Source: Escherichia coli (lineage in GTDB: Bacteria; Pseudomonadota; Gammaproteobacteria; Enterobacterales; Enterobacteriaceae). Taken from it: a stretch of 64,000 nt of DNA. The stretch is taken from assembly GCF_024502345.1 (NCBI RefSeq), contig NZ_JALDNN010000001.1; one strand, 5' to 3'. Below are positions 10,378 to 40,780 of this stretch, in pieces. Below the pieces are notes generated by a model, which was not told the origin of the DNA, made no database searches, and was given only the letters and a program-made list of their open reading frames with translations. Each line of letters begins with the position of its first letter. Position 1 is the first letter of the stretch. The position numbers and the translations under genes are program-made.

Positions 10378-13300
10378 TTACACCTCCACGCGGCCCAGCA
10401 GATAATGATGATGCTGGTGGACATGGCTGATGATGCGGCACATATCGTTCAGCTCCGGTGGTACGTTGTTAAACTGACCTTCGCTGTCGATGTTTAACAC
10501 CCAGCTTTGGTTATTCAGACGTACTCGTACCCGGCAATCTTCCACAAGGAAGCCTGGGTTGCTGCTGTTATCAAAGTCTTGCGCCAGGCTGAAGACGGTG
10601 ATTTTGTCTTTGTATGGTTTACCGTTCCACGGACAGAACTGAGCGCAGTTGCCGCATTCGTTACAGTAAGCGTCGAGGTGCAGCGTCTGGAATCTATTCT
10701 GGAAGCCAGGGACTGCAATGGAGACGTTGGCGCGGTTCGGGCAGACATCCACGCACTTGCTGCAAACGTAGTTACATTCAAGGCAGCGAGCAGCTTCCTG
10801 CGCGACAAACGCATCACGATCGTCACTGTTCACCAGCGTGATAGAGATATCGCCTTTACGTTGATAGATTTCCGCCGGATTGACGTTGTTCCAGTATTTA
10901 TTGTTCTGGTGGGAACGGATATTTTCCCGACTAAGGATGGCATCGGTCGCCCGACGCGCGGTTCCGACAGCAGCGACAATGGAGGATGGTCCGCGCTGTA
11001 CGTCGCCGATCATAAAGACGTCAGTCAGACGAGTTTCGCCATTATGGTCGACGTCTGGCCAGCCGTTTTTGTCCAGCGGTACGCCCATCGCATTCAGGGC
11101 TTCAGTATCCTGCTGTTCACCGATGGCGGTGATCAGACTGTCTACATGCAGTGTTACTGTTTCGTTGGTTTCAACCGGACGGCGACGACCTTTCTCATCG
11201 GGTTCGCCAAGCGACATAACGCGCAAGGTTAAGGTGCCATCAGCATCGAAACATTCCGGATTATTCAGGAAACGGAACTCCACGCCGTCGTGCAACGCTT
11301 CTTCATACTCTTCGCGCCATGCGGGCATCTCTTGCAGTGAACGACGGTAAACGATCGTTGCTTTTTCTACGCCTGGAACGCGTAACGCCGCACGAGCGCA
11401 GTCCATTGCGGTGTTACCCGCCCCGACAACGACCACATGTTTGCCCAGCTTGAGCGCTGTACCCTTGTTGTATTCACGCAGGAAGGGGAGTGATTTCCAG
11501 ACATTTTGGTTGTCGCCCGCCAGTTTCACACCGCTATTTTTATCAGTGCCGGTGGCAATCAGAACATAGTGGAAGCCCTGATTTTTTAACTGTTCAACGG
11601 TCAAATCGGGTGAGCAGCCATACTCAAATTTCACGCCGTGAGCGGCAACAAAATCGATATCGTGCTGAATTAACTCTGCAGGAATACGGAACTGAGGGAT
11701 GATATTTTTCACCACGCCGCCCGCATTGGCTTCGCGTTCAAACAGCGTAACCGGATGGCCCGCTCTGGCAAGGAAGTAACCTGCAGCCAGACCCGCCGGA
11801 CCTGCACCAATCACTGCAACCGGATGGCGTGAACCAGAACCGGCTGGTTTGTGCCAGCGTTGCTTATATTCATCCCAACCTTTTTCCAGCGCGACTTTTT
11901 TCAGTTCGCGGATATTCAGTGCACTGTCGTAATCCAGGCGGGTACAGTTGTATTGGCACTGGTGATCGCAAATATGACCGGTAATGGCGGGCAGGGCGTT
12001 GCGTTGGTAGATAAGTTCCAGCGCGTCGGCATAGCGGTGTTCGCCAAGCAGACGGATGTATTCCGGAATATCTTGCTTGATCGCGCAGGCAGTAACACAG
12101 GGGGCAACGTAGCAGTCGGTCAGCGGCAGGTCTTCTGCCACTTCAATACGCTCTTCTGGCTTCCAGTGTTTCTGGGTGTATTCCATGGTTAGCGCGTCTG
12201 CTGCCAGTCTGTTCAGTCGTTCGACGTCAACATGGTCAAGTCCCCAGGCGTCGGAGCCTTCCAGCTCGCGCATGCAGGCACTTAAACGCAGATAGCCACC
12301 AGGTTTCAGCAGGTCGGTTGCCATAGTAATAGGGCGAATACCTGTATCAAAAATATCGCGGATAGTCAGCTGACTGGCACCACCGGAATAAGAAATGGGC
12401 AGTTTGCCGTCAAAGGCGCGAGAGAGAACTGCTGCAACATTGATGGAGAGCGGGAACAGCGCACGGCCTGACATATACATCTCTTCACCAGGCAGTGCGC
12501 CTTTATTGTTGATGGTGCCGAGAGTGTTAGTCAGTTTTACGCCAAAGCCGAGTGATTTTTCTTTTGCCAGTGCCATCAGGCGTTCCAGCATTTCCAGTGC
12601 TTGCGTCAGCTTGAGGTCGTGATCAAATGACTCTTCTTTTAAGCCTATGTAACCGAAACCGCAGACATCGAGGATCTCACGAACACGCGCGTACCCCAGT
12701 AAGGTCGGGTTGAGTTTCACAAAGGTGTTGAGCCCTTTTTCTTCCAGCATGTAGCGGCAAATGGCTTCGATTTCATGCGGAGGACAGCCGTGCATGGTGG
12801 AGAGGGTGACGCCCTGCACCATACTGGTGGGGATGCGAGCGGGTAAGGCTTGCAAGCTTTCGCGTTTTTCCTGCAATCCGTGGCGGGCTAAAAATGCGTC
12901 ATCCTGGAGTAATTTATTCAGCGTATCGCGATATTGCGCGAATTTCGGATGGTCAGATGCGTCCATCATATTGTCGATGAACTGTTGCATCGGCGGTTGC
13001 TTAATACCTTCAAGGTTGTAACCGACGCTCATATTAAAGATGAACGATTTACCGGAATCAGAAGGCTGGAACATCGCTTCGAGAAGGTGCAGGGCAAACC
13101 AGGCTTTGAGGTATTCATCCCAGGCTTTAAGCAGGGTAAATTCGGTAGACCATTCGGTGTTAAAGCACTCGTCTTCGGCATCGATACAGGGCTTTTCCAG
13201 CTCCAGGCGGTCAAGAATTTGGACGGTTTTTAGTTCGATGAAGCGTCCGCCAGTCAGCCAGGAAGTGACAATATTTTGCGCGAGCTGCGTGTGCGGGCCA

Positions 13301-13476
13301 GCGGCAGGGCCGACGGGAGTGGCACAGGTTTCACCGAAGACGCTAACAGTTTTACCTTTTACAGGTGAGTAAAACTGTTGCTCGGGAATACCAAAGATTG
13401 AGCGTTGTTGTTGGTATTCATCAAATATGCGCGTCAAAAGTTCCTCAAACGGAATGGGACGCATAATATCCCCCAT
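10378..13476 (-). CDS. ygfK: large Fe-S/FAD oxidoreductase (GltD-like domain fused to a dihydropyrimidine dehydrogenase-like domain)
   Basis: 1032 aa ORF; nucleotide-binding GAGPAG motif and C-terminal cysteine clusters; stop immediately precedes ssnA. Confidence 0.85.
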   Translation of the reverse strand: MGDIMRPIPFEELLTRIFDEYQQQRSIFGIPEQQFYSPVKGKTVSVFGETCATPVGPAAGPHTQLAQNIVTSWLTGGRFIELKTVQILDRLELEKPCIDAEDECFNTEWSTEFTLLKAWDEYLKAWFALHLLEAMFQPSDSGKSFIFNMSVGYNLEGIKQPPMQQFIDNMMDASDHPKFAQYRDTLNKLLQDDAFLARHGLQEKRESLQALPARIPTSMVQGVTLSTMHGCPPHEIEAICRYMLEEKGLNTFVKLNPTLLGYARVREILDVCGFGYIGLKEESFDHDLKLTQALEMLERLMALAKEKSLGFGVKLTNTLGTINNKGALPGEEMYMSGRALFPLSINVAAVLSRAFDGKLPISYSGGASQLTIRDIFDTGIRPITMATDLLKPGGYLRLSACMRELEGSDAWGLDHVDVERLNRLAADALTMEYTQKHWKPEERIEVAEDLPLTDCYVAPCVTACAIKQDIPEYIRLLGEHRYADALELIYQRNALPAITGHICDHQCQYNCTRLDYDSALNIRELKKVALEKGWDEYKQRWHKPAGSGSRHPVAVIGAGPAGLAAGYFLARAGHPVTLFEREANAGGVVKNIIPQFRIPAELIQHDIDFVAAHGVKFEYGCSPDLTVEQLKNQGFHYVLIATGTDKNSGVKLAGDNQNVWKSLPFLREYNKGTALKLGKHVVVVGAGNTAMDCARAALRVPGVEKATIVYRRSLQEMPAWREEYEEALHDGVEFRFLNNPECFDADGTLTLRVMSLGEPDEKGRRRPVETNETVTLHVDSLITAIGEQQDTEALNAMGVPLDKNGWPDVDHNGETRLTDVFMIGDVQRGPSSIVAAVGTARRATDAILSRENIRSHQNNKYWNNVNPAEIYQRKGDISITLVNSDDRDAFVAQEAARCLECNYVCSKCVDVCPNRANVSIAVPGFQNRFQTLHLDAYCNECGNCAQFCPWNGKPYKDKITVFSLAQDFDNSSNPGFLVEDCRVRVRLNNQSWVLNIDSEGQFNNVPPELNDMCRIISHVHQHHHYLLGRVEV

Positions 13477-13558
13477 AACCCTCTCCTTAGCTTATACAGA
13501 TATCATTGAGTGACCGGTGTTGAGAAATCCGGTGGTTTAGGGGGATAGAGCAACAATC

Positions 13559-13574
13559 GCACCACTCTTGCCAG
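13559..13574 (-). promoter_or_regulatory. candidate sigma-54 (-24/-12) promoter upstream of ygfK
   Basis: minus-strand sequence CTGGCAAGAGTGGTGC: GG and GC dinucleotides at the canonical 10-nt spacing; about 85 bp upstream of the ygfK start. Confidence 0.3.
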
Positions 13575-13797
13575 GTTTGGCGGGAAATATAAAAAAATGT
13601 GAGGCGGCTCGAAACTTAAGGGCTTTTTGTGAATGAACTCACAGGTGCTAAATGAGAATTAAAATCACTCCTGAAAATTATTATTGCCAGCCCATTTATC
13701 ACTTTTTCTCTTTTCTCAAAATCAGTGATTCCTTATCATTATGATAAAGAGTGCCGGAAGGATTAAATATTTGAACGCAATCGTTTAACTACGTTTT

Positions 13798-14376
13798 CTA
13801 AATTTCTGTATACCTTTTCTTCGCTGTAATAAAGTCGTCCGGAGTATCAATATCTAAAATTATTTCTGCATTTTCTATTTCGACGGAATAATGATCTCCC
13901 ATAAGGAGTGCCTGACGCATATTGGTGACATTGGGTCGCTGGATTGCCTGCATCAGGCATGGTTTTGACACTAAAATCGGATGGCCGGGGATGCCATTAT
14001 GGAGTGGCAGTATTGCGCCATCATTTCGTAACGACCAGATTTTTCTAAAAATATCGATGGTGAGGGTTGGCATGTCACCGTGGGTGAGAAAACAATGTTC
14101 TGTTTGCACCGCGGGTACTGCGGCCTTTACTGATGTTAGTAAACCCTGCGCATAATCTGGGTTGTGGATAATAGTGATATTGCTCTGGTTCGCATAACGT
14201 TCGTGCAGTTCATTACCACGATAGCCGGTGACTAAAATAATTCGGCTACAAAACTGCAACGCATTTTTGATACTTGTATCAAGAATTGTTCCCTGTTGCC
14301 AGGGTAACATCATTTTCCATTGCCCCATTCTTGATGATAATCCGGCAGCGGTAATTATACAGTCGATGGCTGACAT
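13798..14376 (-). CDS. mocA: molybdenum cofactor cytidylyltransferase
   Basis: 192 aa ORF; MobA-like nucleotidyltransferase N-terminus (IITAAGLSSRMG). Confidence 0.8.
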   Translation of the reverse strand: MSAIDCIITAAGLSSRMGQWKMMLPWQQGTILDTSIKNALQFCSRIILVTGYRGNELHERYANQSNITIIHNPDYAQGLLTSVKAAVPAVQTEHCFLTHGDMPTLTIDIFRKIWSLRNDGAILPLHNGIPGHPILVSKPCLMQAIQRPNVTNMRQALLMGDHYSVEIENAEIILDIDTPDDFITAKKRYTEI

Positions 14377-23200: not shown

Positions 23201-23569
23201 GAATTATCCGCGCGGCTGCAAAAGACTAATTTGACGGATAATGTGTGGGGTTGATCACAAATTGATGCCAGCTTCTGGTTGTTTGTAAAATACGAAAACG
23301 TTTGGCTTTTTTTATCGCGTTATTTATTTGCTGCTAAGTATCAGAAATAAGATAAAGGGGCAGGCTATCTCTCTTCAGTTTGATAAACTCACCGCCGTAA
23401 TTCTCATATTGATATAGAAATGTGATATCTCTTCCATAATTTCATTAGAAAATGATAAAAATCTTATGTTTTTATCAAAGCCAATTTCGCCTGAGTTAAT
23501 ATCATCATGATCTGTGAACCATCAACGTCTTCAATGATCGACTTTTAAGTAAGTCTGGAAGGTAAAGCT

Positions 23570-25348
23570 ATGGAGCTTGCTACTACGCAGTCAGTATTGA
23601 TGCAAATTCAACCGACAATTCAGCGTTTTGCCAGAATGCTTGCCAGCGTTTTGCAGCTTGAGGTTGAGATCGTTGATGAAAACTTGTGTCGCGTCGCCGG
23701 AACGGGCGCGTATGGGAAGTTTCTTGGTCGCCAGTTGAGCGGCAACTCACGCCTGCTCCGCCACGTCCTGGAAACGAAAACTGAAAAAGTTGTGACACAG
23801 TCTCGCTTCGATCCCCTTTGCGAAGGTTGCGATAGTAAAGAAAATTGCCGCGAAAAAGCATTTCTGGGTACGCCTGTCATTTTACAGGATCGTTGTGTTG
23901 GGGTGATAAGTTTGATTGCCGTTACCCACGAGCAACAAGAGCATATCAGTGATAATTTACGCGAATTTTCTGATTATGTTCGCCATATATCCACCATTTT
24001 TGTTTCGAAACTTCTGGAGGATCAGGGGCCAGGAGATAACATCAGTAAAATATTCGCGACCATGATCGATAATATGGATCAGGGCGTATTAGTTGTTGAT
24101 GATGAAAGTCGGGTTCAGTTTGTTAATCAGACTGCCTTAAAAACACTTGGTGTTGTACAAAATAATATTATTGGGAAACCTATCCGTTTCAGACCATTAA
24201 CATTTGAGAGTAATTTTACTCATGGACATATGCAGCATATTGTTTCGTGGGACGATAAAAGTGAATTAATCATTGGTCAATTGCATAACATTCAGGGCCG
24301 ACAATTATTTTTAATGGCATTTCACCAATCGCATACCAGTTTTTCTGTAGCAAATGCACCTGATGAACCACATATTGAACAATTGGTTGGCGAGTGCCGT
24401 GTTATGCGGCAATTAAAACGACTCATTAGCCGTATTGCACCCAGCCCATCCAGCGTTATGGTGGTTGGTGAAAGTGGCACGGGTAAAGAAGTCGTCGCCC
24501 GAGCAATCCATAAGTTGAGCGGAAGACGGAATAAACCCTTTATTGCTATCAACTGTGCCGCGATTCCGGAGCAGCTTCTGGAAAGCGAACTGTTCGGTTA
24601 TGTTAAAGGCGCATTTACTGGCGCTTCTGCCAACGGTAAAACAGGGTTGATTCAGGCGGCGAATACGGGCACGCTGTTTCTCGATGAAATAGGTGATATG
24701 CCATTAATGTTGCAGGCTAAATTACTGCGCGCTATTGAGGCGCGTGAAATTCTGCCGATTGGTGCCAGTAGCCCAATACAAGTCGACATTCGCATCATTT
24801 CTGCAACTAATCAGAATTTGGCCCAGTTCATTGCCGAAGGTAAATTCCGCGAAGATCTCTTCTACCGACTTAATGTTATCCCGATAACTCTGCCACCGCT
24901 GCGTGAACGTCAGGAAGATATTGAACTATTGGTGCATTACTTTTTACATCTGCATACCCGTCGTCTGGGATCGGTTTATCCTGGCATTGCTCCCGATGTC
25001 GTCGAAATATTGCGTAAGCATCGTTGGCCCGGAAACCTGCGCGAGTTAAGCAATTTGATGGAATATCTGGTTAACGTAGTTCCTTCAGGTGAAGTTATCG
25101 ACAGCACGCTATTGCCGCCAAATCTGCTGAATAATGGCACAACGGAGCAAAGTGATGTAACAGAGGTCAGTGAGGCGCACCTGTCACTCGATGATGCGGG
25201 CGGCACGGCGCTGGAGGAGATGGAAAAGCAAATGATCCGCGAGGCGCTTTCACGTCATAACAGCAAGAAGCAAGTTGCTGATGAACTGGGCATCGGCATT
25301 GCTACGCTCTATCGCAAGATTAAGAAATATGAGTTGTTAAACACATAA
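23570..25348 (+). CDS. ygeV: sigma-54-dependent transcriptional activator (bacterial enhancer-binding protein)
   Basis: 592 aa ORF; AAA+ sigma-54 interaction domain with Walker A (GESGTGKE) and GAFTGA motif; C-terminal Fis-type HTH. Confidence 0.85.
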   Translation: MELATTQSVLMQIQPTIQRFARMLASVLQLEVEIVDENLCRVAGTGAYGKFLGRQLSGNSRLLRHVLETKTEKVVTQSRFDPLCEGCDSKENCREKAFLGTPVILQDRCVGVISLIAVTHEQQEHISDNLREFSDYVRHISTIFVSKLLEDQGPGDNISKIFATMIDNMDQGVLVVDDESRVQFVNQTALKTLGVVQNNIIGKPIRFRPLTFESNFTHGHMQHIVSWDDKSELIIGQLHNIQGRQLFLMAFHQSHTSFSVANAPDEPHIEQLVGECRVMRQLKRLISRIAPSPSSVMVVGESGTGKEVVARAIHKLSGRRNKPFIAINCAAIPEQLLESELFGYVKGAFTGASANGKTGLIQAANTGTLFLDEIGDMPLMLQAKLLRAIEAREILPIGASSPIQVDIRIISATNQNLAQFIAEGKFREDLFYRLNVIPITLPPLRERQEDIELLVHYFLHLHTRRLGSVYPGIAPDVVEILRKHRWPGNLRELSNLMEYLVNVVPSGEVIDSTLLPPNLLNNGTTEQSDVTEVSEAHLSLDDAGGTALEEMEKQMIREALSRHNSKKQVADELGIGIATLYRKIKKYELLNT

Positions 25349-29122: not shown

Positions 29123-29464
29123 AAACGACGATAAGCGTTAGGGGAGGTAGGAAGTGTGATGACGTTAAAAAAACACAGATATGATACGAAACAGGACTCT
29201 GAATAGGGGCAGTGATACGTATCAATATGAGTGGCGATAAAATCAATGTGATAAATTGGGATTATTACGCATCAGGATGGGAAATAGGGTAAAAAGTCAG
29301 GAACTTCGATACCTCTACAGCGAATATTTTGCTGATGATACTTCCCTTTGCCAAATGAAATTAACCTCTTTCTCTATTACCACGTTTTTCCAGAAGCAAG
29401 AGATTGGGTATCAAGAGGCTGGCTGCTATGATAAGGCGTCTTGTTTTTTAAGCGAGGAAAGATT

Positions 29465-39517: not shown

Positions 39518-40780
39518 ATGCCACATTCACTGTTCAGCACCGATACCGATCTCACCGCCGAAAATCTGCTGCGTTTGCCCGCTGAATTTGGCTGCCCGGT
39601 GTGGGTCTACGATGCGCAAATTATTCGTCGGCAGATTGCAGCGCTGAAACAGTTTGATGTGGTGCGCTTTGCACAGAAAGCCTGTTCCAATATTCATATT
39701 TTGCGATTAATGCGTGAGCAGGGCGTGAAAGTGGATTCCGTCTCGTTAGGCGAAATAGAGCGTGCGTTGGCGGCGGGTTACAATCCGCAAACGCACCCCG
39801 ATGATATTGTTTTTACGGCAGATGTTATCGATCAGGCGACGCTTGAACGCGTCAGTGAATTGCAAATTCCGGTGAATGCGGGTTCTGTTGATATGCTCGA
39901 CCAACTGGGCCAGGTTTCGCCAGGGCATCGGGTATGGCTGCGCGTTAACCCGGGGTTTGGTCACGGACATAGCCAAAAAACCAATACCGGTGGCGAAAAC
40001 AGCAAGCACGGTATCTGGTACACCGATCTGCCCGCCGCACTGGACGTGATACAACGTCATCATCTGCAGCTGGTCGGCATTCACATGCACATTGGTTCTG
40101 GCGTTGATTATGCCCATCTGGAACAGGTGTGTGGTGCTATGGTACGTCAGGTCATCGAATTCGGTCAGGATTTACAGGCTATTTCTGCAGGCGGTGGGCT
40201 TTCTATTCCTTATCAACAGGGTGAAGAGGCGGTTGATACCGAGCATTATTATGGTCTGTGGAATGCCGCGCGTCAGCAAATCGCCCGCCATTTGGGCCAC
40301 CCTGTGAAACTGGAAATTGAACCGGGTCGCTTTCTGGTAGCGCAGTCTGGCGTGTTAATTACTCAGGTGCGGAGCGTCAAACAAATGGGTAGCCGCCACT
40401 TTGTGCTGGTTGATGCCGGGTTCAACGATCTGATGCGCCCGGCAATGTACGGTAGTTACCACCATATCAGTGCCCTGGCAGCTGATGGTCGTTCTCTGGA
40501 ACACGCGCCAACGGTGGAAACCGTCGTCGCCGGGCCATTATGTGAATCGGGCGATGTCTTTACCCAGCAGGAAGGGGGAAATGTTGAAACCCGCGCCTTG
40601 CCGGAAGTGAAGGCGGGTGATTATCTGGTACTGCATGATACAGGGGCATATGGCGCATCAATGTCATCCAACTACAACAGCCGTCCGCTGTTACCAGAAG
40701 TTCTGTTTGATAATGGTCAGGCGCGGTTGATTCGCCGTCGCCAGACCATCGAAGAATTACTGGCGCTGGAATTGCTTTAA
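39518..40780 (+). CDS. lysA: diaminopimelate decarboxylase
   Basis: 420 aa PLP-dependent decarboxylase (fold-type III). Confidence 0.9.
   Translation: MPHSLFSTDTDLTAENLLRLPAEFGCPVWVYDAQIIRRQIAALKQFDVVRFAQKACSNIHILRLMREQGVKVDSVSLGEIERALAAGYNPQTHPDDIVFTADVIDQATLERVSELQIPVNAGSVDMLDQLGQVSPGHRVWLRVNPGFGHGHSQKTNTGGENSKHGIWYTDLPAALDVIQRHHLQLVGIHMHIGSGVDYAHLEQVCGAMVRQVIEFGQDLQAISAGGGLSIPYQQGEEAVDTEHYYGLWNAARQQIARHLGHPVKLEIEPGRFLVAQSGVLITQVRSVKQMGSRHFVLVDAGFNDLMRPAMYGSYHHISALAADGRSLEHAPTVETVVAGPLCESGDVFTQQEGGNVETRALPEVKAGDYLVLHDTGAYGASMSSNYNSRPLLPEVLFDNGQARLIRRRQTIEELLALELL

Follow-up and report, generated by a model that had tools for sequence, protein, structure and literature searches.

The ygfK gene is the first gene of the ygfK-ssnA-ygfM-xdhD operon, in which ssnA, ygfM and xdhD follow it in this order, separated by gaps of 2 nt and 50 nt and then by a 4-nt overlap. 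The DNA analysed here (the window; one continuous stretch of 64 kb) is a segment of the Escherichia coli chromosome, in reversed orientation relative to K-12. The same-strand gene mocA lies 322 bp upstream of ygfK, and the mocA-ygfK intergenic region was found in 5161 of 5426 complete E. coli genomes. The operon encodes the enzymes of the first committed steps by which gut bacteria degrade uric acid reductively: XdhD-YgfM reduces urate to yanthine, and YgfK together with SsnA mediates dearomatisation and ring opening. Uric acid strongly induces ygfK, glucose slows the degradation of both urate and yanthine, and the pathway bears on hyperuricaemia and gout. The cluster also encodes YgeV, whose gene had been cited in a preliminary description of this DNA as making an enhancer-dependent promoter plausible; the PAS, Sigma54_activat (E 8e-71), AAA_lid_14 and HTH_8 domains that we find in the protein mark it as a true enhancer-binding protein. 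The coordinates of the features discussed below are collected in Table 1. The strain itself differs from K-12 elsewhere in the window. The sigma-54 sites of ygfK and ptrA (13557 and 61688) are 48.1 kb apart here and 59.2 kb apart in MG1655 coordinates (tables of Bonocora et al.), and therefore the two chromosomes differ by approximately 11 kb between xdhA and ptrA, an interval in which related strains carry remnants of the ETT2 type III secretion system.

Table 1 Features of the ygfK regulatory region and of related sites in the cluster (positions are those of the window)
Feature	Position	Strand	Remarks
ygfK coding sequence	10378..13476	-	ATG at 13476; 1032 aa; first gene of ygfK-ssnA-ygfM-xdhD
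ygfK Shine-Dalgarno sequence AAGGAGAG	13488..13481	-	
Short hairpin ACCGG-N11-CCGGT	13513..13533	-	close to the 5' end of the predicted leader; weak evidence
Predicted ygfK transcription start	13538	-	19 bp downstream of the motif centre (convention of Bonocora et al.); 62-nt leader
Best-supported ygfK sigma-54 promoter GTGGTGCGATTGTTGCT	13549..13565	-	-24 GG at 13563-13562, -12 GC at 13551-13550; corresponds to OS31 of Bonocora et al.
Sigma-54 register of the preliminary description and of Zhao et al. 2010, CTGGCAAGAGTGGTGC	13559..13574	-	overlaps the better-supported promoter
Conserved blocks TTAAGTTTCGA and CCTCACATTTTT	13619..13609 and 13604..13593	-	no known factor matched
CRP-type site TGTGA-N6-TCACA (exact)	13628..13643		centre ~97 bp before the predicted start; lies between palindrome and promoter
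Conserved block TGATTTTAATTCTCAT	13652..13667	-	centre 94-95 bp before the first base of the 17-mer; no known factor matched
Half-site-like block GATTTTGAGAAA	13712..13723	-	conserved; adjoins the palindrome
Perfect palindrome TTATCATAATGATAA (TTATCA-N3-TGATAA)	13733..13747		~183 bp upstream of the promoter, centre to centre; candidate upstream activating sequence
Palindrome copies at ygeW	23372-23386 and 23401-23415		178 and 207 bp before the sigma-54 motif of ygeW
ygeV	23570..25348	+	gene for a sigma-54 enhancer-binding protein in the cluster; candidate activator
Palindrome copy at xdhA	29240-29254		125 bp upstream of the xdhA motif; a related second site (~29217-29229) adjoins

Two earlier studies have placed ygfK under sigma-54. 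Bonocora et al. (2015; PMC4591121) described a sigma-54 ChIP-seq peak at this locus, OS31, with a FAT of 26 and flagged as 'predicted' in EcoCyc, and their data indicate that sigma-54 RNA polymerase occupies the OS31 site in vivo. The motif that MEME assigned to this peak, GTGGTGCGATTGTTGCT, lies 62 nt from ygfK; it is identical to 13565..13549 of the window and stands at the same 62-nt distance, so that OS31 and the promoter considered here are the same promoter at the same locus. The same authors cautioned that binding is no proof of a productive promoter and that many sigma-54 sites may never fire (PMC4591121). Zhao, Liu and Burgess (2010; PMC2831329) had previously included ygfK among 22 new candidates for the sigma-54 regulon; its microarray signal rose 2.1-fold on overexpression of sigma-54 and fell 2.4-fold in an rpoN deletion. 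The candidate ygfK promoter in Table 2 of that study, aaccTGGCAAGAGTGGTGCGATtgtt, was derived by motif finding on the microarray candidates and is the same register as that given in the preliminary description; for the Zhao gene set as a whole, Bonocora et al. reported no enriched sigma-54 motif. In vitro genomic SELEX for the RpoN holoenzyme lists the ygeV/ygeW site and does not list ygfK, and ygfK, ssnA, ygfM and xdhD are all members of the 'YgeV iModulon'. The sigma-54 promoter of ygfK is already published and is not new, and the version put forward in the preliminary description repeats the 2010 prediction. The claim that a sigma-54 promoter precedes ygfK stands, given the OS31 peak, the microarray data and the conserved motif described below; the exact assignment of the -24 and -12 elements does not, as it is off by 9 bp.

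Two overlapping registers upstream of ygfK satisfy the GG-GC spacing of exactly 10 nt. The -24 and -12 elements of the downstream one read TGGTGC-N5-TTGCT on the minus strand (13564..13549). The sequences were scored with a weight matrix built from the 135 ChIP-seq sigma-54 sites of Bonocora et al. (2015) minus the five that come from this cluster, i.e. from 130 sites. The downstream register scores 14.2 bits, which ranks fourth to fifth in the window and is close to the median of the 135 true sites (14.4 bits), and its fellow top-ranked matches in the window include the known xdhA, ygeW, ptrA and recC sites. The plus strand carries two further sigma-54-like motifs inside lysA, at 40098-40114 (CTGGCGTTGATTATGCC) and 40760-40776 (CTGGCGCTGGAATTGCT), with scores of 13.4 and 14.7 bits. 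Both are absent from the high-stringency ChIP list of Bonocora et al. and are either look-alikes or low-stringency sites; because they score highly and yet are missing from that list, a matrix score alone is no proof of binding. No sigma-70-like promoter was recognised on the ygfK strand of the intergenic region.

Our search of the literature found no mapped ygfK transcription start. Within the predicted leader (Table 1), the short hairpin has a consensus stem of 5 bp in 25 sequences, with one covarying pair, and a search of positions 13300-13900 with the Rfam covariance models gave no match at E <= 1. The Aeromonas and Edwardsiella loci have different 5' leader hairpins at the same place.

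The conservation of the region was assessed in 80 ygfK loci, one genome per species, from Escherichia, Citrobacter, Klebsiella, Kluyvera, Edwardsiella, Serratia, Morganella, Aeromonas, Photobacterium and beta-proteobacteria. For 79 of the 80 loci, the highest-scoring sigma-54 motif in the 400 bp preceding the gene reached 11.6-19.9 bits and was without exception in the downstream register; its distance from the ATG was 57-233 nt, or 57-129 nt if a single locus is set aside. The consensus of the orthologous motif is YTGG-YSYGAWTG-TTGCT, with T2, G3 and G4 as well as T13, T14, G15 and C16 invariant in 79/79, and a MAFFT map against 73 non-Escherichia sequences shows positions 13563..13549 to be conserved. 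Synteny with mocA is found in 49 of the 80 loci; the motif and the architecture upstream of it are kept also in the 31 loci that have another gene upstream.

One element of this architecture is the perfect palindrome TTATCA-N3-TGATAA; of 77 distinct upstream regions from orthologous loci, 75 contain it with at most two mismatches. The distances between the centres of palindrome and promoter fall into two main classes, 162-163 bp and 182-184 bp, which are two helical turns apart, and a test of helical phasing of these distances is only suggestive (Rayleigh p 0.02-0.1, 14 distance classes). Matches of the TTATCA-N3-TGATAA type are enriched in the window (14 found, 2.4 expected) and include copies upstream of the ygeW and xdhA sigma-54 promoters (Table 1). 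We did not find an operator of this sequence described in our literature search. A Fur-box reading of the palindrome was considered and rejected: the likeness is partial, and other genera follow TTATCA-N3-TGATA instead. Adjoining the palindrome is the half-site-like block, in whose place (GATTTTGAGAAA) the beta-proteobacterial loci have a second full palindrome. Three beta-proteobacterial MAGs (L062, L064 and L077; Rhodocyclaceae, Rhodoferax) show a sigma-54 motif and a double palindrome before ygfK, e.g. TTATCAAATTGATAG-N8-TATTGATTTGATAAG.

Between the palindrome and the promoter lie several further conserved elements. The CRP-type site is the sole exact match to TGTGA-N6-TCACA in the 64-kb window, and it is present with at most one mismatch in 42 of 77 orthologous regions, mostly from Enterobacterales; the in-register CRP-type sites stand at 70-72 bp, and those of Morganella at 82-83 bp. 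Upstream of the ygeW promoter there is a copy with one mismatch (23244-23259), and the literature mentions a Crp site for the ygeV-ygeW region. The block TGATTTTAATTCTCAT is retained with at most two mismatches in 46 of the 77 upstream regions, at a constant distance. Of the two blocks closest to the promoter (13593..13619), the CTCAC is at least 80% conserved; it precedes the 17-mer by 33-34 bp, also in most Aeromonas loci, and by 44 bp in the Photobacterium locus. Joined together, these two blocks (13613..13598) resemble a weak second CRP-like site, TTCGA-N6-TCACA. Visual inspection of both strands at 13590..13625 for the IHF consensus WATCAANNNNTTR gave no convincing match, and therefore we claim no IHF site at ygfK.

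The motif, the palindrome, the CRP-type site and the fixed distances between them are kept across several orders and two proteobacterial classes, which argues for selection on function; both the downstream -24/-12 register and the architecture upstream of it are under purifying selection across genera. The comparison also suggests that the regulatory module moves together with the ygfK gene cluster.

We propose with considerable confidence that ygfK-ssnA-ygfM-xdhD is transcribed from the sigma-54 promoter at 13564..13549, with an upstream scheme of the enhancer/CRP type. Sigma-54 RNA polymerase would form a closed complex at this promoter (13565..13549), which an enhancer-binding ATPase, most likely YgeV, would then open by ATP hydrolysis. 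YgeV would be bound at the palindrome and the neighbouring half-site, ~160-185 bp upstream, and the CRP-type site in the intervening loop DNA might introduce a bend and bring expression under catabolite control. Transcription would begin near 13538 and yield the 62-nt leader. The palindrome is a candidate YgeV enhancer because it is also found before the ygeW and xdhA sigma-54 promoters. More tentatively, TTATCA-N3-TGATAA, usually accompanied by a second copy or a half-site, could be the YgeV operator and constitute an enhancer code common to the cluster (ygfK, ygeW and xdhA) that travels with ygfK across gamma- and beta-proteobacteria; the CRP site at its fixed position may in that case act architecturally, as IHF does elsewhere. 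We regard this extension as a possibility somewhat short of an even chance.

Among the alternatives, the one that best withstands the evidence, though unlikely, is that the promoter is real and the activator is not YgeV, with the palindrome binding some other regulator, e.g. a purine- or metal-responsive repressor. The link between YgeV and ygfK is one that we infer, and ygeV adjoins ygfK in none of the 80 loci (a tblastn search with YgeV gave zero matches in them). In addition, a run of 10 bases (ATAATGATAA) is common to the A/T-rich palindrome and the Fur consensus, which speaks for another regulator. However, a palindrome of the same type stands before all three sigma-54 promoters of the cluster in the window, its distance of ~160-185 bp, in classes separated by 20-21 bp, is what enhancer sites typically show, and YgeV is the only enhancer-binding protein that the cluster encodes. 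Earlier work, as cited in the iModulon paper, found lower expression of ygfT in a ygeV mutant, which likewise speaks for YgeV.

It is highly improbable that the register of Zhao et al. and of the preliminary description is the functional one in E. coli, or that it serves as a second, mutually exclusive binding position. The letters of the motif CTGGCAAGAGTGGTGC were given correctly, its GG (13572-13571) and GC (13560-13559) do have the canonical 10-nt spacing, and its -24 half, CTGGCA, is a perfect match; 83 nt separate its 3' end from the ATG, close to the approximately 85 bp that had been stated. Moreover, it has been published as a candidate promoter (PMC2831329), and ChIP-verified sites with low scores do exist (OS32, 5.2 bits; OA08, 7.2 bits). 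The GTGC that was taken for its -12 element, however, is the tail of a -24 element: as the OS31 motif sits 9 bp downstream, the supposed -12 GC is formed by the last two bases of TGGTGC. Scoring with a weight matrix, which the preliminary description itself had named as a check, went against it, with 7.9-8.25 bits compared to 14.2 bits for the downstream register and a rank of 63-68 among the ~128,000 positions of the window. Only 2 of the 135 true sites score as low, which places the upstream register below the 5th percentile, and because it lies below 133 of the 135 it falls outside the score range of validated sites. The penalties of its 17-mer, CTGGCAAGAGTGGTGCG, arise from A at position 7, G at position 13 (G in 5/135 true sites) and G at position 17. 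The gap between the two registers narrows to 10.9 versus 12.0 bits when the matrix is built from intergenic sites only. The window contains 7 instances of TGGCA-N7-TGC, versus 4.4 +/- 2.1 in shuffles, and the motif as defined in the preliminary description is not above chance level.

The position of the ChIP peak and the comparative data also favour the register 9 bp downstream. The peak is offset by +18 from the centre of the downstream motif, which MEME selected, and by +27 from that of the upstream one. At 41 other intergenic sense sites the offset has a mean of +5.2 bp (downstream), a standard deviation of 5.6 and a maximum of +22; the value of +27 exceeds all 41, and that of +18 is in the upper tail, with 2/41 as large. 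Only 4 of 79 orthologous loci, all of them Escherichia-like, have a GG..GC equivalent to that of the upstream register, the median score of this register over the loci is -17.7 bits, and the MAFFT map shows no conservation at 13574..13566. The upstream TGGCA looks like a near-match confined to Escherichia, with no sign of selection. Our choice of register rests on sequence, conservation and the position of the ChIP peak, and all further comparisons refer to the promoter at 13564..13549.

That sigma-54 merely binds at this promoter, and that ygfK instead owes its expression to read-through from mocA or to a sigma-70 promoter that escaped recognition, is very remote: the caution of Bonocora et al., the only ~2-fold rpoN effects on the microarrays, and the same-strand position of mocA 322 bp upstream, with no intrinsic terminator predicted on that strand in the intergenic region, would allow it, but the motif and its architecture are conserved across orders even where mocA is not the upstream gene, the intergenic region yielded no sigma-70 candidate on the ygfK strand, and ygfK shares its regulation with the other genes of the cluster that sigma-54 drives.

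The sigma-54 promoter of ygfK closely resembles the two other sigma-54 promoters of the cluster, those of xdhA (OS29) and ygeW (OS30). All three score between 13.7 and 15.5 bits, are separated from the start codon by 80-84 nt and have sites like the palindrome 125-207 bp upstream, and ygeW, like ygfK, has a CRP-like site. They differ in the -24 element, which is TGGTGC at ygfK and TGGCAC or TGGCGT at the other two, and in the number and spacing of the upstream sites. The prpBCDE promoter of E. coli and Salmonella is dependent on sigma-54, PrpR, IHF and CRP. As an analogy only, ygfK shares with prpBCDE the character of a catabolic operon, the use of sigma-54 with a pathway-specific enhancer-binding protein, and an input from CRP, which is putative at ygfK; in contrast to prpBCDE, no IHF site was recognised at ygfK. 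A related arrangement has been predicted for the DioR sigma-54 regulon of Clostridiales, where sigma-54 together with an enhancer-binding protein of its own is assigned to homologues of ygeW-ygfK-ssnA-ygeY, dpaL and xdhC, among others (Nie et al. 2019; PMC6615313). That system belongs to another phylum and its activator bears another family name; the likeness to ygfK lies in the genes and in sigma-54.

The current analysis adds to the published promoter a decision, based on evidence of selection, between the two registers in the literature, and a testable candidate operator for the activator YgeV, which would be common to the sigma-54 promoters of the cluster. Knowledge of the exact promoter and enhancer would be useful for engineering the uric-acid pathway or for predicting its expression.
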